A stretch of DNA of 64,000 bases from Octopus sinensis. Lineage: Eukaryota. Under the pieces are notes generated by a model that saw only the letters and a list, made by a program, of their open reading frames with translations, was not told the DNA's origin and ran no database searches. Of this stretch, positions 1,544-60,056 are shown in pieces (within the stretch, counting starts at the first letter, position 1; each line of letters begins with the position of its first letter). The stretch covers positions 25,234,001-25,298,000 of the forward strand of contig NC_043020.1 in the NCBI RefSeq assembly GCF_006345805.1, read 5' to 3'. The position numbers were made by a program, and so were the translations under genes.

Positions 1544-3020
1544 AGTCCACTGTTTGCGCCTCGGCACCTGGAGGAACAAGCCGATATCGTCCAGTGTTGT
1601 TTTGGACACTGGACAGATGGTCCTGTTAAATTGCTTGGAGTTTGGGTTGGTTCAGACTCCCAGACGGAGAAAAATTGGAGCGAGGTAGTGACCAGGTAGA
1701 GCCATAGTTTGGGAGTGGTCCGAAGGCATCTTTTCTTGAAAGGGAGGGCGGAGGTGTACAGGTGTTTATAGCATCTGTAATCACACTAGCGCTCGACTGT
1801 CGTGCCTTGCCCCCGATTTTGTGGCTAAGCAAGTTGGATTCGACTCCTTTTCCGCTTTTGTGGAGGGAGGAAAGCCACTTGTAAGGCGCTCCGTGTGTTG
1901 CCAGGAACCACTAAAGGGTGGGCTGGGGATGCCTTGGTTAATGATGCGCAGGCATGCGCTGAGACTGAGACATCTCTGGTTTCACCTGGAAGGTGATAAG
2001 GTGGGGAGTCCGCTGGCAGATAATTTCTTCCCGCAACCGGACTCTATGGAGAGATTTAAACCCGGTTTCATTAAAAGACGGAACCTGACTTTATGGCAGA
2101 AAGAGTGCCGACAGGCACTCTGGCTGATCCACAAGATAGGCAAAGCCGGCTGGGAATACCACCTCGACATTTTATAGAAGGATGGTAGAGGCAAAAAATG
2201 ACGACGTCCTAAGAGGGGCTCTGGGGTTCGATGAGGATCAACTATCCGACCTGTTTAAGAAGACTTTCAAGCCGGGGTATTTGGACAATTACCAAAAATC
2301 CCTGACTTGGCAGTGCTATAGGAATGCTCTACCTGTTCGCGATAAGTTATATAGGCATGGAATGTCAGTGCCACCGACATGTCCAAGATGTGGGTTGGAC
2401 GATGAAACCGTCCAGCCGTTTTGTACATTGTCAGGAACTGTCAGGCTTAATAAGTTACGTAGAACACGTGTTGTCGCATCTGGACGAGTACAGCTATCGG
2501 CTGGTTATCTATATAAAGATGATACCGCCAGCTGGACTCTCAAAGAAGGTGAGGCTTGTTTTCACTGCTACGGTGGCAGTAACTGAAAAGGTGTGTGTGG
2601 AGAACTAGATTGGAAGGTTTGGTGTCAGGAACCTTTGTCTCTGGATATGGTATGTTAAAATACTTCAGATACCATCTAAAGAGCAAGATGGATTTAGAGA
2701 AGAGGAACCTGACACAGAAAAAGTATGTGAATCGATGGAAGGATGTGATAAAAAAAGGTGGGTGTGAGTAACCTGCTTGGTCATCATGAAGGGAGAAAAT
2801 AGTCTCTGGGCTCTTAGGCTGTCGGGTAAGAATCCTGACTGTGATATACCTAGCTGGCCAAATTCATTTTTAATTTAAAAAAAAAAGGAGAAAAGTAAAG
2901 TCTAGTATCATAATCAATAATCAACATATGTAAATATCAAACGAACAACGTAAACTTTTTGTAATTATGTTTTGTTGTAAGTCTATCTCTGTAAGATTTT
3001 ATAATCATAATAAAGATTAG
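1544..3020 (+). mobile_element. Tx1/L1-clade LINE 3' portion (ORF2 C-terminus, frameshifted)
   Basis: VKLLGVWVG, PLKGGLGMP and WQCYRNALPVRDKLYRHG..CPRCG..DETV (zf-RVT-like). Homologous to the ORFs at 22503-23129 and 59133-59894. AATAAA at 3009-3014. Confidence 0.85.
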
Positions 3021-3680
3021 GAAGCGACACCTACTGGCTGGCTACGCTGCATTGAAAAGGGGCAATACTCCGAAACGCGTCTGTAGCTGCCGGTCAAGTA
3101 GTGTGGAGCGACTGACCTCCTTGTTCGAAGGTTATATGGATACAGTTTGTGTATCAAATAGCTAAATTAAGGCGATGGCTCATGGAGCTAATAAGCGGAC
3201 AGCTTTTTTCTTATTTTTATAAGAATGCCATATTAGTATGGCGATAACTATTATTTCCGGGAACGCTGCCGCTGTTCTCTTTTAGAGAGACTTAGTTATT
3301 TTAATATTCTATTATTGAAAACAAGTGGATGTATTCCACCGAAACTAGGTAAATAAAACCATCGAACAGAGATGTCGGAAGCGACACCTACTGGCTGGCT
3401 ACGCTGCATTGAAAAGGGGCAATACTCCGAAACGCGTTGTAGCTGCCGGTCAAGTAGTGTGTGCAGCGACTGACCTCCTTGTTCGAAGGTTATATGGATA
3501 CGTTTGTGTATTCAAATAGCTAACTTAAGGCGATGGCCTCATGGAGCTAATAAGCGGACAGCTATTTTCTTCTTTTTATAAGAATGCCATATTAGTATGG
3601 CGATAACTATTATTTTCCGGGAACGCTGCCGCTGTTCTCTTTTAGAGAGACTTAGTTGTATTTTAATACTGATATTATAT
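3021..3680 (+). repeat. About 1.8 units (period about 357 bp) of the HHR-containing retrozyme-like repeat
   Basis: Same sequence as the 49989-51463 units. HHR motifs at 3046-3087 and 3403-3443. Ends in (TA)n. Confidence 0.9.
3046..3087 (+). ncRNA. Type I hammerhead ribozyme, U3-A8 variant
   Basis: GCUGCA UUGAAAA GGGG CAAUA CUCC GAAAC GC GUC UGUAGC. Confidence 0.8.
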
Positions 3681-22185: not shown

Positions 22186-23185
22186 TGTTTCTTTATTAGC
22201 CACACAGATTACAAAGTAGAGCTTTTCTTTATGGGGAGAATAAAAAAGGGGGGTAGGTTTTCGATCAGAAGGGATCGTAAAAAGGAAAGAAAAAAAGAAA
22301 AAAAAGCAAGAAAAGAAAAAACAGAAAAGAAAAAATGATTAATAGGAATCGTGTATCACAGAAATGTCATGATGTAAAGTGTAAAGGGGGAAGCAGATAG
22401 GGTTTATCCGTGGAAAGAAAAGCCTACTGAAAAGACCACGGTAACCTCGGTCAATAATGTCACATGTTAACACATTTGTTTGCAAGTAGGTAACCCTCTG
22501 TTTTAAATTTTTCCGGGTTCATAGGATTTGCTCAACGTGGTTTCGTCATTCAAACGTGCCATCCTTGCTACATTCACCCATCTTTTTTTTAAACATTCGC
22601 TAGACAAAACTTGCCTCTCTACTCTCACTTTCCCTTTCAGGTGATACTTGAAGATGAGGGATTGACCAGAGAGGAAAGTGTTTGTCTCCAATCCTTTCAG
22701 ACGCGTCCACCAAATACATTCTTTCGCCATAGCCACAAGAATGATGAAAATAGCTCTTCCTTCCCGTTTGAAGGAAGAAGGCGTGACAATATTGACGATA
22801 GACTCGGCTGATAAACCGACTCGTCCCACACGTGACAGCAGTCGTTCGACATAATCCCACAGGTCGGAAATTGTTGGACACTGCACGAGTGCGTGCAGAA
22901 CGGTTTCGTTGCTCTGACCGCATCTCAGGCAGGTCGGCACCGTGTTTCTCGAGCTGTGTCTGTAGAGTTTATCCTGAACGGGTAGCGCTTCTCGGTAGCA
23001 CTGCCAGGCCAGGGATCTCTGGAAGTTGTCCATGGGTCCTGGCCCGAAAGTCGTCCTGAACAGGCGGGTCAGGTATTCCTCGTCGACGTCCAGGTTCGCC
23101 CCGAGCTCGTCGTCGTACCTTCCCTCCACTAATCCCCTATAGAATGCTCAAGGTCGATCCGGGACGGCATAGTTGCTTGAGAGCG
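22186..23185 (-). mobile_element. 5'-truncated Tx1/L1-clade LINE flanked by (GATA)n
   Basis: ORF 22503-23129 has WQCYREALPV..CLRCGQSNETVLHALVQC (zf-RVT). Near-identical to 58750-60057. Confidence 0.9.
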
Positions 23186-30475: not shown

Positions 30476-30534
30476 AATGTGAGGATAAAATTCTTTTCGA
30501 AAAAAAAAATTTTCTCGAAAAAAATTTTATCAAT

Positions 30535-31082
30535 GGCCAGCATATTAAAAAATACCTTTAACGGTTAAATTTATAAACAATTCATAAATGAGGGCAAAGG
30601 AAAAAAATTCTAATGCCAAATATGCCGAAAAATTGGACATATTGTCCATTAACCATATAATTTTTTTCACAATACGCACGCTACTCGAAAAAAGGTCGAC
30701 AGAAATTTCTAAAAAATTCCATTATTACCATATCGGGCCGATTTCAGAGTTAGCTACTAAGAGCCCTCTCTTCATCAGTGATACATGTGGCAAAAGAAAT
30801 AAATGAGATACTTACTCACACCCATGGAAGAAGTCATGGGCACAACTACATCCAAATACATCCAAAATAGAAATACTCCAGCCCATTCGAGGCACGTGCG
30901 ATTTATATATGTATAACTCTGAAATCGGCCCGATATGGTAATAATGGAATTTTTTAGAAATTTCTGTCGACCTTTTTTCGAGTAGCGTGCGTATTGTGAA
31001 AAAATTATATGGTTAATGGACAATATGTCCAATTTTTCGGCATATTTGGCATTAGAATCTTTTTCCTTTGCCCTCATTTATG

Positions 31083-36169: not shown

Positions 36170-36898
36170 ATTAATAGTTATCGCCATACTAATATGGCAG
36201 TCTAAATATAAGACTAAAGCTGTCGCTGATTAGCTCCAAGAGGCCACCGCCTCTAGCTAGCTATATGACACACGAACCTGCGTCCATTATAAACCTTCGA
36301 ACAGGGGAGGTCAGCCGCTTCACCTTGCTAGTCAGACATCTGCAGATATGTGTCAGGGTTGTTGCCCTTTATCAATGCAGCGTAGTCAGAACCAGCAGGT
36401 GTCGCTACTGACGTCTGTTCGAAGGTTTTATTTACCTAATTACAGTGGAATATTATTAGTATGGCGATAACAATTAATATCCAGTAACGCTGGATATTAA
36501 TCTCCTTTAGAGAGACTTAGTAATTTTAATATTTCTATTATTGAAAACAAGTGGATGTATTCCACTGTAACTAGGTAAATAAAATCTTCGAACAGATGGT
36601 CAGTAGCGACACCTGCTGGTACTGACTACGCTGCATTGATAAAGGGCAACAACCCTGAAACATGTCTGCATATGTCTGACTAGTAAAGGTGAAGCGGCTA
36701 ACCTCCCCTGTTCGAAGGTTTATAATGGACGCAGGTTCGTGTGTCATATAGCTAGCTAGAGGCGGTGGCCTCTTGGAGCTAATCAGCGACAGCTTTAGTC
36801 TTATATTTTGACTGCCATATTAGTATGGCGATAACTATTATATCCAGTAACGCTGCCGTAATCTCCTTAGAGAGACTTAGTAATTTTAATATTTCTAT

Positions 36899-36900
<2 letters not shown>
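36170..36900. repeat. Divergent subfamily of the retrozyme-like repeat: inverted partial copy (36170-36455, minus) joined to about 1.2 direct units (36455-36900, plus)
   Basis: Shares GCCATATTAGTATGGCGATAAC, AGAGAGACTTAGTAATTTTAATATTTCTATT and GAAAACAAGTGGATGTATTCCAC with the 50 kb array. (TA)n on both sides. Confidence 0.9.
36631..36671 (+). ncRNA. Type I hammerhead ribozyme, U3-A8 variant
   Basis: UGCA UUGAUAA AGGG CAACAA CCCU GAAAC AU GUC UGCA; stem III palindrome ACAUGU. Confidence 0.8.
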
Positions 36901-47571: not shown

Positions 47572-49604
47572 CTCACTGACAGAAGAGTTCGCATTTTTCA
47601 AGCTGCTTGTAAATCACGTCTTGCGACGTGAAAACTGTACATTTGAAGCACGACTACATGTAGGCGTTTATTTTATTTTGGAGGCGCTTAGTGGAGTTTG
47701 TTGCTCTGTAATTAATAAATTTTGTCGAGCAATAGAACTCTACTCTGTTCCAGACATTTGCCTGCCTGTGGTTCTGCAAAAAGACTCACTTTGCAGTGAG
47801 ACTAGTGATTTCCCTCCACGAAAAATTTTTGTCTGTTTTTTGCTGTGTTCGTGCCTCTACCTCTGGATTTACCATTCTGGCAAGGAGAGCGAGGACGGCG
47901 GAGAATTTAATTTTTGTGCTGCGGATAGCCTGAGTAGCAGAATTTTGTTGCCAGTTGAACAGTGTTCCTTCATTCCTTTTTTTTTTCATGTCTGTCTTTC
48001 CGTTCTTTCTTTGTGTTATATTATTGACTTTTATTTGAACATTTTTGGACTTTTTGTTTTTGGATTATTTTTATTTTATTTTTGGGAAAAAATGGCATCA
48101 AAGAATAGCGCTTTGGAGTGGCGAATTGTGGCCCCCCAAAGATTGGCTCAAAAATTATACTGAGAGAATGGTGGTGTTAAGGACCTACTCTAGGGTCCTG
48201 GAGTTCTCTCAGTCTGACATTGAGGAAGATTTGGCAAAGTACCTGCTAACTTTTCGATTTATTCGTAGGGGTACAAAGTACGTAACTGTGTGTGTTCTTT
48301 TTGACACCCCTACGGAGGCACAAGGGTTTGCGTGCCAACCGGTCGAATGGGAGAAGATTTTGTTTCTCCCCACATACGGTGGGCGAAAATTGACGAGAGC
48401 TTGGGTGTGTGGGCTTCCACCCGGAATTGAGCCCGAGTGGATAGAGGATACCATCCGACGGGGTCTGGGTGGCAGCGGAGCCAAGCTCTTAAATGTCAGA
48501 ATGCTTCCTGTGGCTGATTGGGTGGGGTCGAAAGCAATTTTTACCCTATGGACCCAATCAGCCAAAGAACTGGTTTTACCAGATGTTTTGACAATGGCCG
48601 GTTCCAAGTACCCGGTGATGGTTGAGGGACGCCCCCCCACCATGTGTCACCTGTGCCTGGAATCGGGTCACATCAAGAAAAACTGTCACCGGGACCAGGC
48701 AAAGGTCCTGGAGCAGTTAATCGAAGAGGTGTCCCCTGTTCCCCCAGTGGAGGAAAAAGTTGAGGATGAGGTAACTTCCTCAAAAAGAGGAGGAAGAGGA
48801 AAAAGGGGGACAACAATGGTTGCCCACCCATGGATCCTGAGACGGCGGGGGCGAGGGAGGGTTTTCTGAAGATGCCGGAGGAGCTCCACCCTCCCGTTGT
48901 AAAAGGAAAGAAGAAAAAGAAAAGGAAGAACGGGGTATTGCTGGTGACGGCATGGCCCGAAGCCCCTTCGGTGGGATGTGTGCCACCGGAGGGGGGAAAT
49001 ATGACCTCGCCGGCGGGATGTGTGCCACCGAGTGAGGGACATGAGGCCCCTCCTAGTGAAGGTAGTGAGGAATGTATGTTCTGCTATCTCAAGGGAGGGG
49101 CTATCGACAGTTTTGTCGAAAATAAGATGGACAGTCGGATCCTAAGGGAACTGAATTGCATTGACAGCTCAGAGTGGCCTTCGCAGGTGGCTGCTCTGGT
49201 GCTGGAATGAAAACAATGCAATATGATAATCTACTCGTGTGGAGGCGAGGTTTTCAGAATTCTCCATTGGAACCCCAGTTTTCACTGAAAACAGTGCCTG
49301 CAAGTTGCACGAGATTTGCTGGGGGAGGAAGTGTAAAAGTTTATTGCCTCTAATTGGTGTATAGACTGTATTTTGATTGTATGGACTTATGGTCCAAGAA
49401 ATTGTATTTTTTGTATTTTTTACCTCAGTTAATGCATTTTTGGGGGAAAAAAATAATAATTTAGAGAAGCAGAGGGTCAGCGGGCGCCTTTTGCCTTCTC
49501 CCATCTTTATCATTTTTCATCATAATCATCCGCTTCATTAATGTTTATGTCTAACCCGCAAGCTACTCTGTGTAATGCCTTTATGGCAAATTTCTATGAA
49601 GAAA
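47572..49604 (+). mobile_element. Non-autonomous Tx1/L1-type element with 5' UTR, ORF1 and 3' end, no RT
   Basis: ORF1 from ATG 48092, frameshifted, to 49210, with VEGRPPT-CHLCLESGHIKKNC (CCHC knuckle). The 3' end CTGTGTAATGCCTTTATGGCAAAT resembles the Tx1 end CTGTGTGCAGCCCTGTGTGGCCAAT (58760-58785, minus). Confidence 0.7.
48092..49210 (+). pseudogene. LINE ORF1 (gag-like RNA-binding protein with zinc knuckle), two frameshifts
   Basis: Overlapping ORFs 47564-48163, 48045-48869 and 48830-49210; CX2CX4HX4C motif. Confidence 0.75.
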
Positions 49605-49749
49605 AGTAGCTTAACAACCACATAGTTCCGGGTTCAATCCCACTGCGTGGCCCTTTGGCCAAGTGTCTGCTACTGTAGCCTCTGGCCGACCAAAGCCTTG
49701 CGAGTGGATTTGGTAGACGGAAACTGAAAGAAGCCCGTTATTTATATAC

Positions 49750-49803
<54 letters not shown>

Positions 49804-50104
49804 AGTATGTATGTATGTATGTATATGTCTGAGTTTTTCCCCCCAACATCACTTGATAACCGATGCTGGTGTGTTTACGTCCCTGTAACTTAGTTCGGCA
49901 AAAGAGTCTATAGAATAAGTACTAGGCTTACAATGAAATTAGTCATGGCGTCGATTTACTCGACTAAAGGCGGCGCTCCAACATAGTTACTTAGTAATTT
50001 TAATATTTCTATTATTGAAAACAAGTGGATGTATTCCACCGAAGCTAGGTAAATAAAACCTTTCAACAGAGATTGTCAGAAGCGACACCTACTGGTCTGG
50101 CTAC

Positions 50105-50146
50105 GCTGCATTGAAAAGGGGCAATACCCCGAAACGCGTCTGTAGC
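50105..50146 (+). ncRNA. Type I hammerhead ribozyme (U3-A8), copy 1
   Basis: GCUGCA UUGAAAA GGGG CAAUA CCCC GAAAC GC GUC^UGUAGC; predicted cut after 50140. Confidence 0.85.
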
Positions 50147-50466
50147 TGCCGGCCAAGTAGTGTGGAGCCACTGACCTCCCTTGTTCAAAGGTTATATGGA
50201 TACAGTTTGTGTATCAAATAGCTAACTTAAGGCGATGGCCTCATGGAGCTAATAAGCGGTCAGCTTTATTCTTATTTTTATAAGAATGCCATATTAGTAT
50301 GGCGATAACTAATATTTTCCGGAACGCTGCCGTTGTTCTCTTTTAGAGAGACTTAGTAATTTTAATATTTCTATTCTTGAAAACAAGTGGATGTATTCCA
50401 CCGAAGCTAGGTAAATAAAACCTTTGAACAGAGATTGTCAGAAGCGACACCTACTAGTCTGGCTAC

Positions 50467-50508
50467 GCTGCATTGAAAAGGGGCAATACCCCGAAACGCG
50501 TCTGTAGC
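50467..50508 (+). ncRNA. Type I hammerhead ribozyme (U3-A8), copy 2
   Basis: Identical motif; predicted cut after 50502. Confidence 0.85.
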
Positions 50509-50829
50509 TGCCGGCCAAGTAGTGTGGAGCCACTGGCCTCCCTTGTTCAAAGGTTATATGGATACAGTTTGTGTATCAAATAGCTAACTTAAGGCGATGG
50601 CCTCATGGAGCTAATAAGCGGTCAGCTTTATTCTTATTTTTATAAGAATGCCATATTAGTATGGCGATAACTAATATTTTCCGGGAACGCTGCCGTTGTT
50701 CTCTTTTAGAGAGACTTAGTAATTTTAATATTTCTATTCTTGAAAACAAGTGGATGTATTCCACCGAAGCTAGGTAAATAAAACCTTTGAACAGAGATTG
50801 TCAGAAGCGACACCTACTAGTCTGGCTAC

Positions 50830-50871
50830 GCTGCATTGAAAAGGGGCAATACCCCGAAACGCGTCTGTAGC
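50830..50871 (+). ncRNA. Type I hammerhead ribozyme (U3-A8), copy 3
   Basis: Identical motif; predicted cut after 50865. Confidence 0.85.
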
Positions 50872-51192
50872 TGCCGGCCAAGTAGTGTGGAGCGACTGAC
50901 CTCCCTTGTTCAAAGGTTATATGGATACAGTTTGTGTATCAAATAGCTAACTTAAGGCGATGGCCTCATGGAGCTACTAAGCGGTCGGCTTTATTCTTAT
51001 TTTTATAAGAATGCCATATTAGTATGGCGATAACTAATATTTTCCGGGAACGCTGCCGTTGTTCTCTTTTAGAGAGACTTAGTAATTTTAATATTTCTAT
51101 TCTTGAAAACAAGTGGATGTATTCCACCGAAGCTAGGTAAATAAAACCTTTGAACAGAGATTGTCAGAAGCGACACCTACTAGTCTGGCTAC

Positions 51193-51234
51193 GCTGCATT
51201 GAAAAGGGGCAATACCCCGAAACGCGTCTGTAGC
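51193..51234 (+). ncRNA. Type I hammerhead ribozyme (U3-A8), copy 4
   Basis: Identical motif; predicted cut after 51228. Confidence 0.85.
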
Positions 51235-51459
51235 TGCCGGCCAAGTAGTGTGGAGCGACTGACCTCCCTTGTTCAAGGTTATATGGATACAGTTTGTGTA
51301 TCAAATAGCTAACTTAAGGCGATGGCCTCATGGAGCTACTAAGCGGTCGGCTTTATCCTTATTTTTATAAGAATGCCATATTAGTATGGCGATAACTAAT
51401 ATTTTCCGGGAACGCTGCCGTTGTTCTCTTTAAGAGAGACTTAGTAATTTTAATATTTC

Positions 51460-51508
<49 letters not shown>

Positions 51509-51565
51509 TAGATAGATAGATACACATATATATGCATATATATATATACATATATAAACATATAC

Positions 51566-51629
<64 letters not shown>

Positions 51630-51995
51630 CACATCTGTATACGTATATATAATATATATATGTGTGTGTGCGTGTACTATATATACACGTATAGTTGCGG
51701 CTGTGGGCAATTAACTTCTTCAAATGAACATTATGTAATAAAATTTGTTGTTGTTGTTGGTGGTGGTGTGGTGTTACTGATATTGCTTTGATTTTATTGT
51801 TCTTGTTGCTGCTGTTGTTATTTTTATTGCCACAATTGTTATTGTTGCTGTTGCAGTTCATGCTTTTTTTCTCATTTTATTTTTATTGACATTGTTATTG
51901 TTTTTGTTATTTTTTTGTTGTAAATTTTGTAATTTCTTTTAACCTTTAATTCCAGTAGCATTTCTAGCTAATCCTTCTTTCTTAGTAGTACTAGT

Positions 51996-52076
<81 letters not shown>

Positions 52077-53091
52077 GCTGTTGTTGTTGTCGTCTCTTGT
52101 TGGTGGACGATAAGGACGAAGTGGAAGATGGCTACAAAAGAAACGCCAGAAAACGGGAAATTAAAACTGAAGGGAAGACAAGAGAACCTTACTCCATCGG
52201 CCATTATCGTAAAATTGATTATTGCAAGACAATGAGGCCAAGCACACACACACACACAATCAGTTTGTTAACAAATTTACACACTTTAACGAAACCCTAT
52301 ATATTCAAAATCACATATGCATATATATATATATAGGTATGTATGCATGTATATATATGTGTGTATGTATGTGTGTACATATGCATATATGTTTGTATAC
52401 GCATTACATGTACGTGTGTATATATGTATAAATATATATATATGTGTGTGTTTGTACATATACATATATATATATATATATTATTATATATATATATATA
52501 TATATATTTACATATATAGGAATATGTATGTTAGTCCCACAGAAACCAACACGCATACTTATACACACACACGCACGCACACGTGACCGAGGAGATTATG
52601 TATGCGACTTATTTCATTGTGAAAGATGCGCACGACACTTTAACTAATGCTATGAAAGATCTGTAGTCTGTTTCTGGTTCTGAGAGATTCCAGTCTTGTA
52701 CAGGAAGCAAAAAGCAGTTGGATGCAAAAAGAAGAGAGAAATAACAACGCACCGAATCCTTTTTTTTCTTTTATAGCGGGGAAAAACCTACGATTGAGAG
52801 GGTTATGTCATGGCACTCCTATTAGGGGCTTTTCGGAATAGTGTATCTAGGACTACATCATCTCTCAGTCCTCGTTATAAGAGAGTTTGGTGTGAGTTGA
52901 AGATTTGACAGTTATGTCTAGCAGGTTTAGCAACCGACTCTCCGTCACCTTATGTTCGATGTTCATCAAAATGGAAGCCAATACATATGGACGTTACCAT
53001 GGCAACTACTAACTTCAAAAACGTACACGCTCACCCTCATCACCGCAACAAGTACCAGCATTAAGGATTAAAAAAAAAAAGAGGTAAGCGT

Positions 53092-53318
53092 CTTCCCTAG
53101 TTATATAGACCCATAAGGGCCAAGTTTCCCGGTCTCCGTGGAGTTTATATTCCCCACTTGGATGGGACGCCGGTCCATCACAGGTTTAACTCGTTTTTAC
53201 TACCTGAATGGATTGGGCGCAACACCAAATGAAGTGTTTTGCTCAAGAAGAACAACGCGTCGCCGGGTCCAGGAATCGAAACCACAATCTTACGATCTCC
53301 AACTATACTGCATTAACC
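53092..53318 (-). mobile_element. SINE (family B-related, degenerate)
   Basis: GCTCAAGAAGAACAACGCGTCGCCGGGTCCAGGAATCGAAACCACAATCTTACGATC. Confidence 0.7.
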
Positions 53319-53379
53319 AATAAATACTACAATTAATACTACTAATTGTGTTGCAGCTATTATTAATGGTGCCAATAAC

Positions 53380-53446
<67 letters not shown>

Positions 53447-54160
53447 CAACACTAACATCAACTACTACCAGGGCAACTACAACTACTACTAAAACTAATA
53501 CTTCTGCTGTTGCTGCTGCTACTACTACTACTACTACTGCTACTGCTACTGCTACTACTACTACTGTGATAATAGCTTTACCCGGCAGACATTTTTCCAC
53601 TTTGGGCGAAACCGGAAATACCGATACAACCGGAAATACCGGTAAAACTCAGTTAAAACTTTGATTTCCGGAAAATACGATTAAAAAAATGGATAACATG
53701 ACAGTGAGGAAGATGATGGGGTGGGGATGGTTGATGGTTATGGTAGGGGAATTGATTGTTGTTGTTGTTGTGGTGGTGGTGGTGGTGGTGGTGATGTTGA
53801 TGGTTTTTGTTGTTGTGGTGGTGGTAGTGGTGGTGGTAGTAGTGGTGGTAGTAGTGGTGGTGGTAGTGATGATTATGATGACAATGACGGTAGTGACATT
53901 GATGCTTTTGGTTGCAGCGGAGGTAATGATAGTGGTGGTGGTGGTGGTGGTGGTGGTGGTGGCGGTTCTGATGTGGTAGTGGCGGTGATGACGATGGTGG
54001 TGATAATGGTGGTAGTGGTGGCATTGGCAGCGGCGACAGCTGCGACGGCGGTGTCGATAGCGATGGTGATGATGATGGTCATGGTCGTATGAAAGTGGTG
54101 GTGGTGGTGGTGGTGGTAGTGGTAGTAGTGGTGGCGGTGGCGGCTGTGGCAGTGGTGATG
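53380..54160. repeat. (TAG)n/(CTA)n/(GGT)n/(GAT)n low-complexity tract
   Basis: Direct reading. Confidence 0.9.
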
Positions 54161-54552: not shown

Positions 54553-55269
54553 GGTATTAACAGGGGTACGGTTTGCGCTGTTGTTGTTAGTGGTGGCGGC
54601 GGTAGTAGTGGTGGAAGTGGTGGTAGTGGTGGTGGCACTAATGTTGTCATTTAGAGCCAGATTAAATGATTAAATACATTCCACCACCACCACAAGGTTA
54701 TCTTAGGGCTCTAGTTTGTCGCTCGGCTAAAGATAAACTTAGTTATCACTGGTTTCAGTTACATCAAGGGTCTGCCTTCACCTGGGCCTTGCTGGATTAA
54801 ACGGTCACCTTTGGATTACCAAGAGATTCAGAAATGCTAGACTCAGCTGCCTTAAAGGAACCTCGCTACATTTGGAGATTTGATAATGGCTATTGACCCT
54901 TGATTGAGTTCAGATATTTTTGGTGGTAGACTCCCCCCCAACCAAGGTGGGACTTTATATTGGGTTGCTAGTGTAATCGTCGCCGGCACAACCAAGAAAC
55001 AAGGAATTATTGGTTTACGTAATTCACCTGTAGCTTGGAAAACATATTTTAATAAGATGGCTGGAAGTGAATGGCAGGAATGATGGCTGCTAGTGCTAGT
55101 AGGTCAAATGACCACAAAGAATACATTCTTGTTCGATGGTGCTGGATGTAGTTTTAGTTTTTCTGTCTTGTCCAAAGAGTGATGACTAAAGAATTAGGTG
55201 CGAACGGTTTTCATTCTTAGCTCCTTCACGCAACAAATTCTACCTTGTTTTGCACACATATGCTAACCT

Positions 55270-56886
55270 GTACGTATGTATGCATACTCATCAAAATCCC
55301 TTCACCAAATGATCTTAAACTAAGACCGATAATAGCAGGGCCAGCATGTGAAACTCACCGCCTCAGCAATTTCTTAGACACACTGCTTAAACCTTTCCTA
55401 AAACACATCAAAAGCTACGTAAGAGACGATATAGATATGCTGAACCACCTCCCTAAAACAGTCAATGAGAAAACCCTTCTAGTATCATTCGACGTAGTTA
55501 ATCTTTATTCTAACATCCCTCACAACCTAGGAATAGAAGCGATCACCTTCTGGCTGAATAACTACCCCTTTGAACTCCCAACTCGCATAAACAAAGACCT
55601 TATATAGAAGGACTTAGATTCATTTTAGAGAACAATTATTTTATTTTTGACAATGATTTCTACAGACAAAGATCGGGAACAGCGATGGGCACGCGTACTG
55701 CACCATCTTTTGCCAACCTAGTGATGGGATACCTCGAGAAAATACTATACCGGATAACACTCGAGAAATATGGAAACACCTTCGCCACCTATATCCATAA
55801 CAACTGGAAAAGATACCTCGATGACTGTTTCATCATCTGGGACAAAGGTATAGAGAAACTTGAGGAATTTAAAATACTATTAAATGGAATAAATGACAAT
55901 ATACAATTCACGATGGACCACAACGAAAAAGATTACCATTTTTAGACATCCTCATTAAGAAAACCGGCAACAAAATAGAGACAGATATCTACTATAAACC
56001 GACAGACTCTAAACAGTACCTACCCTTTGATTCATGCCACCCACGACACACTAGAATGAATGTTCCTTTTTGTTTAGCTAGAAGGATTTGCACCATAATA
56101 TCAGACACAAACACCCGACACACACGTCTCCAGGAACTTAGAACTACACTCACAAATAGAAACTATCCACAGCCCCTAATATACAGTGCAATCCAACGGG
56201 TACTTAAATTAAGTATAGAAGACCTGAGACAAACAAAACTAAAAAAGAAAGAACAATTAAAAACCCTTCCCTACATCTCTACACACAACACACTCAACAA
56301 TGAGGCCTTCAACACCATACTACAAAGCACAGCCCTACTAAAGGGAGACCCAAAGATGAACCGGATCCTCGAAACACACACCATCATTAAAAGTAAACGG
56401 CAACCAAAATCCTTGAAAAGGATTTTAACCCAAGCTACACTGCACTCAACATCAACCACAAAACCAGCAGTTAGAAAATGTGGAAGGCCCAACTGCGGAA
56501 TCTGTGTCATCTTGAAAGAAGGATCAGAATTTATACTGGAACAAAGCCACCAGTTCACCATTAGAACAAACTTCACCTTCGCATCAGAAAACTTAATTTA
56601 CGTCATAACATGCGCAGGCTGCAATAGGCAGTATATAGGCCATACAAAAAATAGCTTACGTAACAGGATGGCGGTGCATAAATCACAAATTAGAAACCCT
56701 GATTACCGCAAAATACCGGTCAGCGGACACATAGATAGATGTGCTGGAAATGTAAATCCGAAATTTACAACTAACCCGCTCTATAAATTCAGTGACAACG
56801 CAACCTTCACACAACGCCAAAATAAAGAACTGTATTTCATAAAAAAATTTAGACCAAGTTTAAACACCCTGGGCCAGGAATATTAA
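55270..56886 (+). pseudogene. PLE reverse transcriptase / GIY-YIG polyprotein (disrupted)
   Basis: ORFs 55245-55607, 55685-55945 and 56056-56886 joined across frameshifts. Confidence 0.9.
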
Positions 56887-57039
56887 AACAAAAGATAAGT
56901 CCTCCGAAAAGGAGAAGCAAAATTCCACCACGGCCGCTACCTTAAACAGTCACTCGCACTGACGGAAATATGCCTTAGTAAAAAAGGAAACAAATTCTTT
57001 CGCGCAAATCTGACCCTGATGGACTGACCACATACGATA

Positions 57040-57728
57040 CAGCTAAGGGTCAGACCCGATTCTGATTGGTCAACACGCTGATGACATCTAGTTCTGCTAG
57101 AATGGACAGGATACAAACAGGGGGCAGAGATTAGTCAGAATATTGATGACGTACCTTTCTGCTTGACTAGTCACCTAACAAAATACAGACAGGGGGCAGA
57201 GCTAATGCAGCTATAAGCCGTGATTGGGCAGAATCTTGATGACGTCCCGTTCTGCTTGACTAAGCCACCTAACGAAACGACTGGTCAAAACAGGATACAG
57301 ACAAGAGGCAGTTATAATACAGCGATAGGTCACGATTGGTCAGAATGTTGATGATGTCCCGTTCTGCTTGACTAAGCCACCTAACGAAAAGGGGCAGATC
57401 TAATACAGCTATAAGTCGTGATTGGTCAGAATCATGATGACGTACCGTCCTGCTTGACTAAGCCACCTAACGAAAAGGGGCAGATCTAATACAGCTATAA
57501 GTCGTGATTGGTCAGAATCATGATGACGTACCGTCCTGCTTGACTAAGCCACCTAACGAAACGACTGGTCAAAACAGGAAACAGACAAGAGGCAGTTATA
57601 ATACAGCGATAGGTCACGATTGGTCAGAATGTTGATGACGTACCGTTCTGCTTGACTAAAGCCACCTAACGAAACGATTGGTCAAAACGTTGATGACGTC
57701 ACGCTACGCTGGACTGACCACCTAACAG
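57040..57728 (+). repeat. Tandem 80-110 bp repeats with ATTGG (CCAAT) and TGATGACGT motifs
   Basis: About 8 copies of GATTGGTCAGAAT..TGATGACGT..CTGCTTGACTAAGCCACCTAAC. Confidence 0.9.
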
Positions 57729-57732
57729 GCAT

Positions 57733-57765
57733 TATAAAACCCGAACAATTCACAAAACTCACTAG
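57733..57765 (+). promoter_or_regulatory. Putative Pol II core promoter (TATA + Inr) in the PLE pseudo-LTR
   Basis: TATAAAA at 57733-57739; TCACT with the A at 57761, 28 nt after the TATA start. Confidence 0.5.
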
Positions 57766-58041
57766 AATCACCCAGCGAACACCTACCATGGGTCATCACA
57801 ATTGCTCAAGGTAAAAATGAATTCCTCGCTCTTTCGGGAACATCAATCTTCTGTATTGACTGCTTTCCACCACTTTGATCTGTTTTTTTGTATTGAATAC
57901 GTATCGCCACTGCATCGAACACTTTGAACATATAGCATGAATGAACTTACTTCAAACTATATTTGAACTTTAAGATGTCTGACTCCGTTGTGTATTATAA
58001 ATGAATTTCTTGTGTTTGACGGCATGAGCTGTCTTTTTTTA

Positions 58042-58100
58042 TATATAACTTTTTTTGATAAGGTTCATTTCAGGAACTGAAACATGTTATAATGTATATA
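58042..58100 (+). ncRNA. Minimal type I hammerhead (U3-A8) in the PLE pseudo-LTR
   Basis: UUGAUAA GGUUC AUUUCAG GAACU GAAAC AU GUU AUAA; stem I weak and AU-rich. Confidence 0.65.
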
Positions 58101-58192
58101 TAAAACTTAAAAATTGTATAATATAGCAGCATTTTCGAACTTCATTTTTTACAAATATATACCTATTCGTATACGAGCTAATCCTATTATAA

Positions 58193-58225
<33 letters not shown>

Positions 58226-58302
58226 TAAGGGTAGAAATTGATATTTATCAATTAAGACCAGTGGTCTAGCATATTAAAAAAGAATCCGAAGATTAAAATA
58301 TT

Positions 58303-58602
58303 TATATATACCAATTAAGGACTGAACACGAAAAGTGGACAGTCAACATGCTAGATAAAGACGTCAAATCGCCATTCACCACAAAAGATTCTGTTCTCAG
58401 ATCAAACTCAACACAAAACCATAGCAATAAACAAGTGAAAAATATACGAATTTTATTTCGTATATTTTTCACTTGTTTATTGCTATGGTTTTGTGTTGAG
58501 TTTGATCTGAGAACATAATCTTTTGTGGTGAATGGCGATTTGACGTCTATATCTAGCATGTTGACTGTCTACTTTTCGTGTTCAGTCCTAAATTGGTATA
58601 TA

Positions 58603-58750: not shown

Positions 58751-60056
58751 GTTTCTTTATTGGCCACACAGGGCTGCACACAGATGGGACAAGTTACAAG
58801 GTAGAGCTTTTCTTTTGGGGGATGAAAAAAAAAACACAAAAGAAAAAAAAAATAAATAAATAAAATAAAAAATAAAAAGAATAAAAAGAAAAATAGAAAA
58901 AGAAAAGGAACAAAAGAAAAGAGAAATGAAAAAAGAAGAAAAAAGGGGAAAAAAGGGGAAGAGGAAAAAAAAAGAACGATCAATAGGGATCGTGTATCAC
59001 AGTGTTATGATATATGGTGTAAAGGGGAAAGCAAGTAAGGTTTATCCGTGGGAAGAAAAGCCTACGAAAAAGACCACGGTAACCTTGGTCAATATTGTTA
59101 TATGTTACCACATTTGTTTTCAATTTCTGGGTTCATAGGATTATGCTCAAGGTGGCTTCGTCATTCATACGTTCCATCCTTGCTACATTCACCCATCTTT
59201 TTTTAAAACATTCGCTAGACAAAACTTGCCTCTCTACTCTCACTTTTCTTTTCAAGTGGTACTTGAAGAAGTTGATGAGAGATTGACCAGAGAGGAAAGT
59301 GTTTGTCTCCAATCCTTTCAGACACGTCCACCAGATACATTCTTTCGCCATAGCCACAAGGATGATGAAAATAGCTCTTCCTTCCCGTTTGAAAGAAGGA
59401 GGCGTGACAATATTCACGATAGACTCAGCTGATAAACCGACTCGTCCCACACGTGACAGCAGTTGTTCGACACAAGCCCACAGGTCGGAAATTGTTGGAC
59501 ACTGCACGAGTGCGTGCAGAACAGTTTCGTCGCTCTGACCGCATCTCGGGCAGGTCGGCCCCGTGTTTCTCGAGCCGTGTCTGTAGAGCTTATCCCGAAC
59601 GGGTAGCGCTTCTCGGTAACACTGCCAGGCCAGGGATCTCTGGAAGTTGTCCATGGGCCCTGGCCCGAAAGTCGTCCTGAACAGGCGGGTCAGGTACTCC
59701 TCGTCGACGTCCAGGTTCGCCCCGAGCTCGTCGTCGTACCTCCCCTCCACTAATCCCCTATAGAATGCTTTGGTTGTGTTGAAGTCACTCAAGGTCGACC
59801 CAGAACGGCAGAGTTGCTTGAGAGCAACGCGACACTCGCGGTGCCATTCGCCCTTCCTCGGCCTCTTTTTGATCCACGACTGCAGTTCGGTCATGGAGAC
59901 GAACTACGGGAAAGCGTGCCTCACAAACGGCGACCACACCTGTTCACCGTCGTCTACATAGAGCCAGAGATGTCGCAGTCTCAGCGCGTGTCTGCGCATC
60001 ATCAACCACGGCATGCCCAGCCCTCCTTTTAACGGGTGTTGACAGCAAGGTCAACC

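Follow-up and report, generated by a model that had tools for sequence, protein, structure and literature searches.

The closest described relatives of the element that we report are the animal non-LTR retrozymes (LTR, long terminal repeat), which are known from coral, mussel (350–390 bp) and axolotl (330/350 bp) (Cervera and de la Pena, 2020, PMC7229834), and the Neptune Penelope elements, which show partial tandems, 5' truncation, an adjacent inverted copy, a tail at one end, a preference for (TA)n and a type I hammerhead ribozyme near the 3' end (PMC4209133; PMC8557442). (These and other papers are cited for the passages that concern such elements.) A Penelope origin or helper of animal retrozymes has been proposed (PMC7229834; bioRxiv 10.64898/2026.07.22.740005). 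Here we describe a tandem array at 49989–51463, on the forward strand, of a 64,000-nucleotide stretch of the Octopus sinensis genome (assembly GCF_006345805.1, contig NC_043020.1, positions 25,234,001 to 25,298,000; "the window"). We consider it likely that this array arose from a single insertion event of an animal non-LTR retrozyme that is young, non-autonomous and Penelope-like, which we will term family A and which shares all of the Neptune traits just listed.

Family A resembles the published retrozymes (PMC7229834) in that it consists of non-coding tandem units in the range of 150–450 bp, with a GC content below 50% and one type I hammerhead per unit, and in that it has loop 1–loop 2 contact motifs and a self-paired monomer. 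The array has a period of 363, 4.1 copies, and 98% matches (Tandem Repeats Finder), and it contains no open reading frame (ORF) of at least 120 amino acids. A sequence-only reading of the window had proposed this array, its period and its four motifs, and the repeat finder and the motif positions agree in placing them all where it did; the spacing of 362/363/363 recurs between the ends of the GUC triplets. The first unit is 5'-truncated (it starts at unit position 211), three full units of 362–363 bp follow, and the last unit stops at position 235, which is the longer of two fixed 3' ends. The focal array is a one-armed family-A copy with this long end.

The four hammerheads lie on the forward strand at 50099–50150, 50461–50512, 50824–50875, and 51187–51238, with the core U3 at 50111, 50473, 50836, and 51199. 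They are predicted to cut after the last base of the GUC triplet (50140, 50502, 50865, and 51228). In hammerhead 1, stem I comprises a distal part (50099–50101), a UAC bulge, and then 50105–50110 paired with 50141–50146; the core UUGAAAA (50111–50117) is followed by stem II (GGGG/CCCC, with the loop CAAUA) and by GAAAC-GC-GUC. We take the UAC bulge and the CAAUA loop to be like the loop-bulge contact of Schistosoma hammerheads. The motif has the type I core N3-U-G-A-N-N8-A ... GAAA ... UH with a Watson-Crick 3-8 pair, and in all four motifs U3 and A8 replace C3 and G8 while the pair is kept, as the earlier reading had it. The U3-A8 core pattern has 9 matches in the window versus 0.08 expected (0 of 100 shuffles).

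The monomer is strongly self-paired (fold z = −5.67, 0 of 100 shuffles), and the ribozyme region has a fold z of −2.55 (3 of 200 shuffles). Three helices with covariation surround the core; helix I is open, and helix III requires the dimer in order to form. The sequence of stem III, ACGCGU, is a palindrome by which a 2-nt loop cannot be closed, and the minimum-energy fold of 50085–50535 is a dimeric hammerhead in which two ribozymes are joined by a 6-bp stem III. Because stem III is palindromic (and covaries), cleavage is expected from the dimer, and on this folding model the retrozyme hammerhead should cleave as a dimer. Similarly, axolotl HHR_Amex1 has a weak palindromic helix III that needs a dimer, and the amphibian repeats cleave poorly as monomers and well as dimers (PMC7229834). 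The class assigned by the sequence-only reading is strongly supported, but it overlooked the need for dimer cleavage, along with the Penelope-type anatomy and the site-specific retrotransposon that we describe below, and these three points tell us more about the element.

An Rfam scan of 48000–53500 gave 69 matches, none of which was a hammerhead, and a scan of 50040–50240 gave no matches at E ≤ 10, so for Rfam the suspicion that standard searches overlook this family was correct. The silence would be expected if the models penalise U3-A8. (In giant squid, 235 Rfam Hammerhead_1 loci have been reported; PMC6962438.) The novelty claimed for the core swap itself was overstated: natural U3-A8 hammerheads were published in 2011 and 2014 (PMC3088659, PMC4209133), with about 1,300 of them in Schistosoma Penelope-like elements, and the Schistosoma Cercyon elements share this variant (PMC4209133). 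Activity of U3-A8 has also been reported for different contexts (PMC3088659, with reference to Przybilski and Hammann, 2007). The retrozymes described in PMC7229834 differ in that here the U3-A8 core extends across the lineage and outnumbers canonical cores in this genome. A literature search (with most subscription journals, Repbase, and Dfam outside its scope) found no record of family A or of a U3-A8 retrozyme lineage.

Family A is dispersed and young. The genome assembly (2.72 Gb, rich in microsatellites) contains 1004 exact copies of the 37-nt core (control 0), which supplies the genome-wide copy number that the earlier reading had called for; the copies are dispersed. A search with the unit gave 226 matches in the 40 candidates that were scored, out of 1012, and units on many contigs are 96–99% identical. 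There are 5485 U3-A8 cores genome-wide (control 461; autonomous Penelope elements are included) and 1983 C3-G8 cores (control 343). The four 3-8 combinations together number 8584 (control 1337), and by subtraction the mismatched forms together number 1116 (control 533). Among unselected cores, U3-A8 is retained in 68/69 of family A, 23/24 of subfamily B, and 19/19 of family P, a Penelope family that is discussed below.

To describe covariation we aligned 31 hammerheads chosen from 62 distinct motif rows; unrelated chance motifs, inversion junctions, and single-mutant copies were excluded, and in two of the 31 rows (family F) homology is apparent only within the ribozyme. Overall, 95.4% of cells are paired, versus 75.2% when shuffled and 27–49% with slid partners, and 14 of 17 pairs vary on both sides. 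The 3-8 pair is UA in 20 rows, CG in 10, and UG in 1, so the U3/A8 covariation, whose loss would have spoken against the sequence-only reading, is retained. The centre of stem III is UA in 12 rows, GC in 9, AU in 5, CG in 3, and other in 2. Stems I and II, the 3-8 pair, and the palindromic stem III all covary between subfamilies. Subfamilies with the U3-A8 core are 66–95% identical, and N7, stem II, and the stem III palindrome vary. For example, a subfamily B copy in the window (36172–36899, forward strand, 82–85% identical to family A, with an inverted 5' arm) has a U3-A8 core at 36636 with N7=U, stem II AGGG/CCCU, and the palindrome ACAUGU. Family E, a sister with the canonical C3-G8 pair, matches each of the four window units at 60–61% identity along the whole unit (about 380 nt; E 1e-15 to 1e-17), and its long 3' end is that of family A. 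Because every helix still pairs while the 3-8 pair switched, selection acted on the ribozyme during amplification. The assignment to a U3-A8 retrozyme class with a type I hammerhead and a compensatory 3-8 change is strongly supported by these sequence comparisons, and copy number, covariation, and architecture likewise strongly support the earlier proposal of a non-LTR retrozyme.

Two further candidates were rejected: an intermediate U3-G8 family (L099 is a single copy) and a C3-G8 family that would be very similar to family A and share its stem I (the only match was unrelated). Family F (L098 and L104) has U3-A8, stem II GAGG/CCUC, and the palindrome ACCGGU, without a BLAST match to the family-A unit, and C3-G8 cores with the stem II and palindrome of family F occur at C1:103756475, C1:123152437, and C1:153945627. 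As judged from these motifs, family F suggests a second, independent 3-8 switch.

The integration footprint shows two fixed ends, (TA)n, and inverted arms, of which we found no description in the passages cited from PMC7229834. We examined 20 distinct family-A loci, which were the best-scoring and hence young. Their 5' ends are scattered, and in 15 of the 20 both strands carry an arm. The 34 visible 3' ends fall at ~235 (17 ends), at ~175, which is 60 bp away (15 ends), or elsewhere (2 ends); 27 of the 32 ends at ~235 or ~175 adjoin (TA)n. Where a two-armed locus has both ends visible, it combines 235 with 175 (13 of 14) or 235 with 166 (1 of 14). In subfamily B, several loci have two long ends. 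The insertions lack poly(A) and target duplications and instead show (TA)n ends, a tail, and inversions. Penelope-like elements are described as truncated, with an inversion next to them, a tail on one side, and (TA)n as the target (PMC8557442), and family A has these traits, as a non-autonomous one would: 5' truncation, an inverted neighbouring copy, one tail, and a microsatellite target. In the focal array, the 60-bp Penelope-type tail between the short and long ends is at 51404–51463 (forward strand), and the (TA)n microsatellite that was the insertion target is at 51464–51510. At the 5' junction, the array cuts short a high-copy repeat (49830–49988, forward strand), probably a short interspersed element (SINE), other copies of which proceed differently past 49984. 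No target-site duplication was seen at this junction. A second family-A array in the window, at 3021–3676 (forward strand), is 91–95% identical.

Family A differs from Penelope elements in having no ORF and a tail of 60 bp rather than 30–40 (PMC8557442), and its ribozyme is of canonical size with bulge and loop contacts, unlike the minimal hammerheads of Penelope pseudo-LTRs. A recent preprint (bioRxiv 10.64898/2026.07.22.740005) reaches the same helper class from co-occurrence and terminal-repeat homology in 31 vertebrates and 4 invertebrates (3 insects and 1 coral), using canonical and minimal hammerhead descriptors in its search, whereas our evidence is the integration footprint.

The window contains two candidate helpers, both of Neptune type. 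Element N1 (55221–58190, forward strand) encodes a reverse transcriptase (RT), a CxxC linker, and a GIY-YIG domain, and carries a U3-A8-like core (58055–58087) near its (TA)n end. Family P is represented by a 3' end on the reverse strand (612–960) with a minimal U3-A8 hammerhead (757–734). In both families the U3-A8 cores are about 110–130 nt from the (TA)n ends, and one of the two has many near-identical copies and open frames of 781 amino acids. The isolated ribozyme regions fold no better than shuffles (z of −0.90 for N1, −0.20 for B, and +0.83 for P), and for this reason we regard the N1 motif as a core match only; its cleavage triplet and stem I are imperfect (in a single copy). An autonomous parent was sought: in 50 A/B loci, no Penelope ORF runs into the unit. 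Because the ends of these two Neptune-type families show no homology to the unit beyond a terminal CTATT pentamer, we infer the class of the helper rather than its identity.

Several other features of the window concern Penelope-like elements. The 3' untranslated region of N1 includes a long internal array of imperfect repeats of about 60–120 bp (56990–57740). A GIY-YIG fragment from another Penelope clade (1032–1442, with related frames in L032, L110, and L115) adjoins the family-P end. At 30494–31080, on the reverse strand, lies a non-coding element with an inverted arm, a partial tandem, (TA)n ends, and a canonical C3-G8 type I hammerhead (core at 30778) whose stem III is longer; it was not seen to resemble family A. 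Finally, at 58220–58600, a short head-to-head inverted element lies between (TA)n runs, and its arms end differently, which is a Penelope-like layout.

We propose that in read-through RNA of tandem units, neighbouring hammerheads would share the 6-bp palindromic stem III and cut after GUC, releasing monomers of about 363 nt and some multimers, with stem I holding the ends together. A host ligase would then circularise the monomers or multimers, as may be supposed from the relatives in PMC7229834. Self-cleavage, the 363-nt monomers, and the circles are thus all predictions. Next, a Neptune-type Penelope RT with its GIY-YIG endonuclease would nick (TA)n and prime reverse transcription; the anatomy of the insertions is visible, and the enzyme is the putative part. 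Priming would occur away from the ribozyme cut, at two fixed points (one per target strand) that lie 175 and 235 nt downstream of it, and reverse transcription would pass several units, so that two 5'-truncated complementary DNAs are joined head to head. As the integration ends lie 175 or 235 nt past the cut, the 3' end of the cut monomer is not the priming site. During these cycles, the 3-8 pair went from C-G to U-A in the lineage while all helices kept pairing, as the alignment indicates.

Multi-unit inserts need a circle or an uncut multimer. Of 30 arms of at least three pieces, which come from the window and from 20 long arrays, 24 lack any variant that a subset of units has in common, and units differ by 0.80% between neighbours versus 2.55% between different arrays. 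In one array (L189), two unit types alternate a-b-a-b over 7 units; another (L201) alternates at one position, and L190 has a rough four-unit period. Near-clonal arms and the alternation in L189 are as expected if monomer or dimer circles were copied repeatedly. Overall, the clonal units favour repeated copying of monomeric or oligomeric circles, and linear multimers and local duplication remain compatible with them. Both types of hammerhead in L189 are defective in one helix (stem I in one and stem II in the other), and its period would fit a dimer circle that was copied after slow cleavage. As for transcripts, no run recorded as RNA contains the unit, while contigs of three runs from three studies (whose RNA nature is a guess) cover it. 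In one of these (X2), the contigs have A>G differences at seven places in 50220–50280, three of which are absent from a deep run (X15); we take this as a hint, not as evidence, of edited plus-strand, strongly paired transcripts.

The unit is also the target of a long interspersed element (LINE). The 3' part of an L1/Tx1-like LINE (1544–3018, forward strand, 97% identical to an intact copy, L149; the 5' part is lost in an assembly gap) occupies the first target site of the second family-A array, which begins directly after the LINE's 3' end. The target, at unit positions 300–315, is duplicated on insertion (about 16 bp, 18–33 nt upstream of U3, with the same allele at position 300 in both copies). 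In the focal array it is empty at 50078–50093 (forward strand) and again at 50440–50455, 50803–50818, and 51166–51181. A pattern built solely from LINE sequence has 38 copies genome-wide. All 30 of the loci examined run on with unit position ~300 (29 by a string test and one substituted); in 28 of them the hammerhead comes next, and in 2 the duplicated site with another LINE behind it. The 5' end, searched with its own pattern, has 35 copies, and all 30 examined follow the target (29 by threshold and one with a 1-nt deletion). Of 40 mapped copies, 39 have the target next to their 3' end. The 5' end is visible in 37 copies, and each of these adjoins the unit or the duplicated site: 35 copies span the full length (5364 bp) and have their junction precisely behind position 315, and 2 are truncated yet joined to the unit. 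Three of the 40 reach assembly gaps. Target specificity has been recognised by the same repeat at more than 20% of flanks (PMC4494074), and here it is found at 39/40 3' ends and 30/30 5' ends. The insertion leaves the downstream hammerhead intact and is often repeated at one locus.

The intact copy encodes ORF1 (CCHC) and an ORF2 of 1132 amino acids from the first Met (APE, RT, and zf-RVT). This domain set, with a C-terminal zinc finger in ORF2, is common to the L1 clade and not diagnostic for Tx1, and among 39 homologues the only two that are named are a Ciona pol-like protein (27%) and a green-algal RT (25%); the label Tx1-like is tentative. Known target-specific Tx1 LINEs include Tx1L in Tx1D, Tx1-Mar in Mariner-N4, Keno in U2, and Kibi and Koshi in microsatellites (PMC4494074); the cited parts of PMC5753468, PMC8869645, and PMC6155905 have little bearing on Tx1 targets. 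Our LINE is like these in its two ORFs (gag-like CCHC; APE-RT-zinc finger), its fixed site in another repeat, its duplication of about 16 bp, and its tandem copies that sandwich a duplication (PMC4494074). It is unlike them in that the target is a ribozyme-bearing retroelement, beside the catalytic motif, and in that nearly all copies are full length. Within the literature scope given above, we found no LINE that is targeted to a hammerhead element. An older relative (44–57% identical in C-terminal ORF2, L150) is inserted in family E at a site about 9 nt nearer the core, with both junctions at two loci and the 3' junction at one more. Other L1/Tx1-like LINE fragments in the window (48039–49210, 22503–23147, and 59133–60047) are 26% identical to the site-specific LINE in ORF1 and about 50% in ORF2.

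At C3:72499500-72531500 (L159–L162), a two-armed array with Penelope-type ends has a full-length LINE of a different haplotype in all five units, versus an overall occupancy of about 4%, so there is strong local clustering. This 30-kb locus (C3:72.50–72.53 Mb) suggested rolling-circle amplification of 5.7-kb circles of LINE plus unit, which was not supported: the five LINEs differ by 7–22 substitutions, outsiders are equally close (7, 7, and 9), and neighbouring LINEs in C13093 differ by 91. (Mosaic LINE haplotypes may reflect assembly polishing or conversion.) Transfer of the upstream unit by the LINE was not supported either, as the upstream pieces are 0.71% from their own arm, like neighbouring units and unlike units of different arrays, although annealing without conversion would leave no trace of such a transfer. 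Because neither circle amplification nor co-transfer of units is supported, we think that the LINE inserts by itself into existing arrays.

We also considered that the LINE borrows ribozymes, that is, that LINE RNA, transcribed together with the array, is excised when the U3-A8 hammerheads on its two sides act as a dimer. The cuts would fall 315 nt upstream and 62 nt downstream of the LINE, and both ends of the RNA would be target sequence. We regard this as possible, if doubtful. If true, it would account for why the junctions are precise, why a poly(A) tail is missing, and why 35 of 37 copies are full length; there would be three tiers of parasitism, with a retrotransposon that is processed by the ribozyme of its target, and the older relative in family E would imply a long-lived partnership between LINE and retrozyme. 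The R2 retrotransposon uses its own ribozyme.

Several observations weigh against a Penelope-mobilised, circle-copied retrozyme. In the 50 A/B loci we found no autonomous element with a terminal repeat that is homologous to the unit (few Penelope 3' ends were compared), CTATT being the only feature that Neptune-type ends share with it, and copies of family P are 92–95% alike and so older than family A. Our choice of alignment rows inflates the covariation; L007 and L064, which were excluded, are single copies with a broken 3-8 pair. The focal array reads a-a-b-b at three positions, and with it three other arms have block or irregular patterns (block patterns occur in L191 and L192). One monomeric circle cannot explain block patterns, and to obtain the focal pattern either the template must have been switched or conversion must have followed; clonal units could equally come from local duplication or from gene conversion. 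In two runs (X1 and X5), contigs continue across 50140 and extend by more than 31 letters to either side of it, as circles, uncut RNA, and DNA would all do. Lastly, only 1 of 9 predicted Xenopus dimer elements cleaved (bioRxiv 10.64898/2026.07.22.740005), so a predicted ribozyme need not be active.

Some of these points would be explained if the same element and the same helper used an uncut or partly cut linear multimer as template, with a hammerhead that trims the precursor or is slow, and with no need for circles. The bridging contigs agree with this, the a-a-b-b blocks and the different haplotypes in the arms of L199 fit linear templates or template switching, and minimal Penelope hammerheads cleave poorly in vitro (PMC4209133). 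Nevertheless, we think it unlikely: a circle is the simpler source both of arrays that reach 11 near-clonal units and have variants private to the array and of the strict two-unit period of L189, and circles are the form in which the relatives accumulate in coral, mussel, and axolotl (PMC7229834). It is very improbable that the array is a satellite that arose when the terminal repeat of a dead Penelope element was duplicated at the DNA level, with a relic hammerhead and U3-A8 by drift. Local tandem amplification from a terminal repeat has been considered, with 8 of 9 tested elements inactive (bioRxiv 10.64898/2026.07.22.740005), and unequal exchange is established as a source of higher-order periods in satellites. 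However, drift of a relic does not account for short arrays that are dispersed in their hundreds, share two 3' ends and have inverted arms, for the near-complete retention of U3-A8 in families A and B, or for compensatory changes between subfamilies in every helix with mismatched 3-8 forms rare genome-wide. Finally, mobilisation of the unit by the neighbouring LINE, as in a SINE-LINE pair, is largely refuted. The LINE is young, intact, and nearly always beside the unit, but it lies inside the unit between two copies of the 16-bp site, i.e., it inserted there. Also, there are about 38 LINE copies versus 1004 cores, the unit upstream of a LINE matches its own array (0.71%), and the retrozyme has the Penelope-type footprint in place of poly(A) and target duplications.

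If a Penelope-mobilised retrozyme is indeed the correct explanation, then the array and its relatives provide evidence, at the level of the footprint, on the enzyme by which animal retrozymes are moved and on the start of reverse transcription, which would lie within (TA)n, as in Penelope, at two fixed sites that are 175 and 235 nt beyond the cut of the ribozyme. A 363-bp donor with defined ends, together with young and intact Neptune ORFs, would make tests of trans-mobilisation and of the Penelope tail practicable, and the homologous C3-G8 and U3-A8 ribozymes are a natural pair for kinetics. The site-specific LINE, an intact, precise, and mostly full-length integrator, extends the range of targets known for sequence-specific APE retrotransposons to a retroelement that bears a ribozyme. 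More broadly, descriptor or Rfam searches can overlook most hammerheads of a genome (about 5000 U3-A8 versus 1600 C3-G8 above control). As the core swap was already known, the lasting interest is in the integration footprint, the scale of the overlooked ribozymes, and the site-specific LINE.
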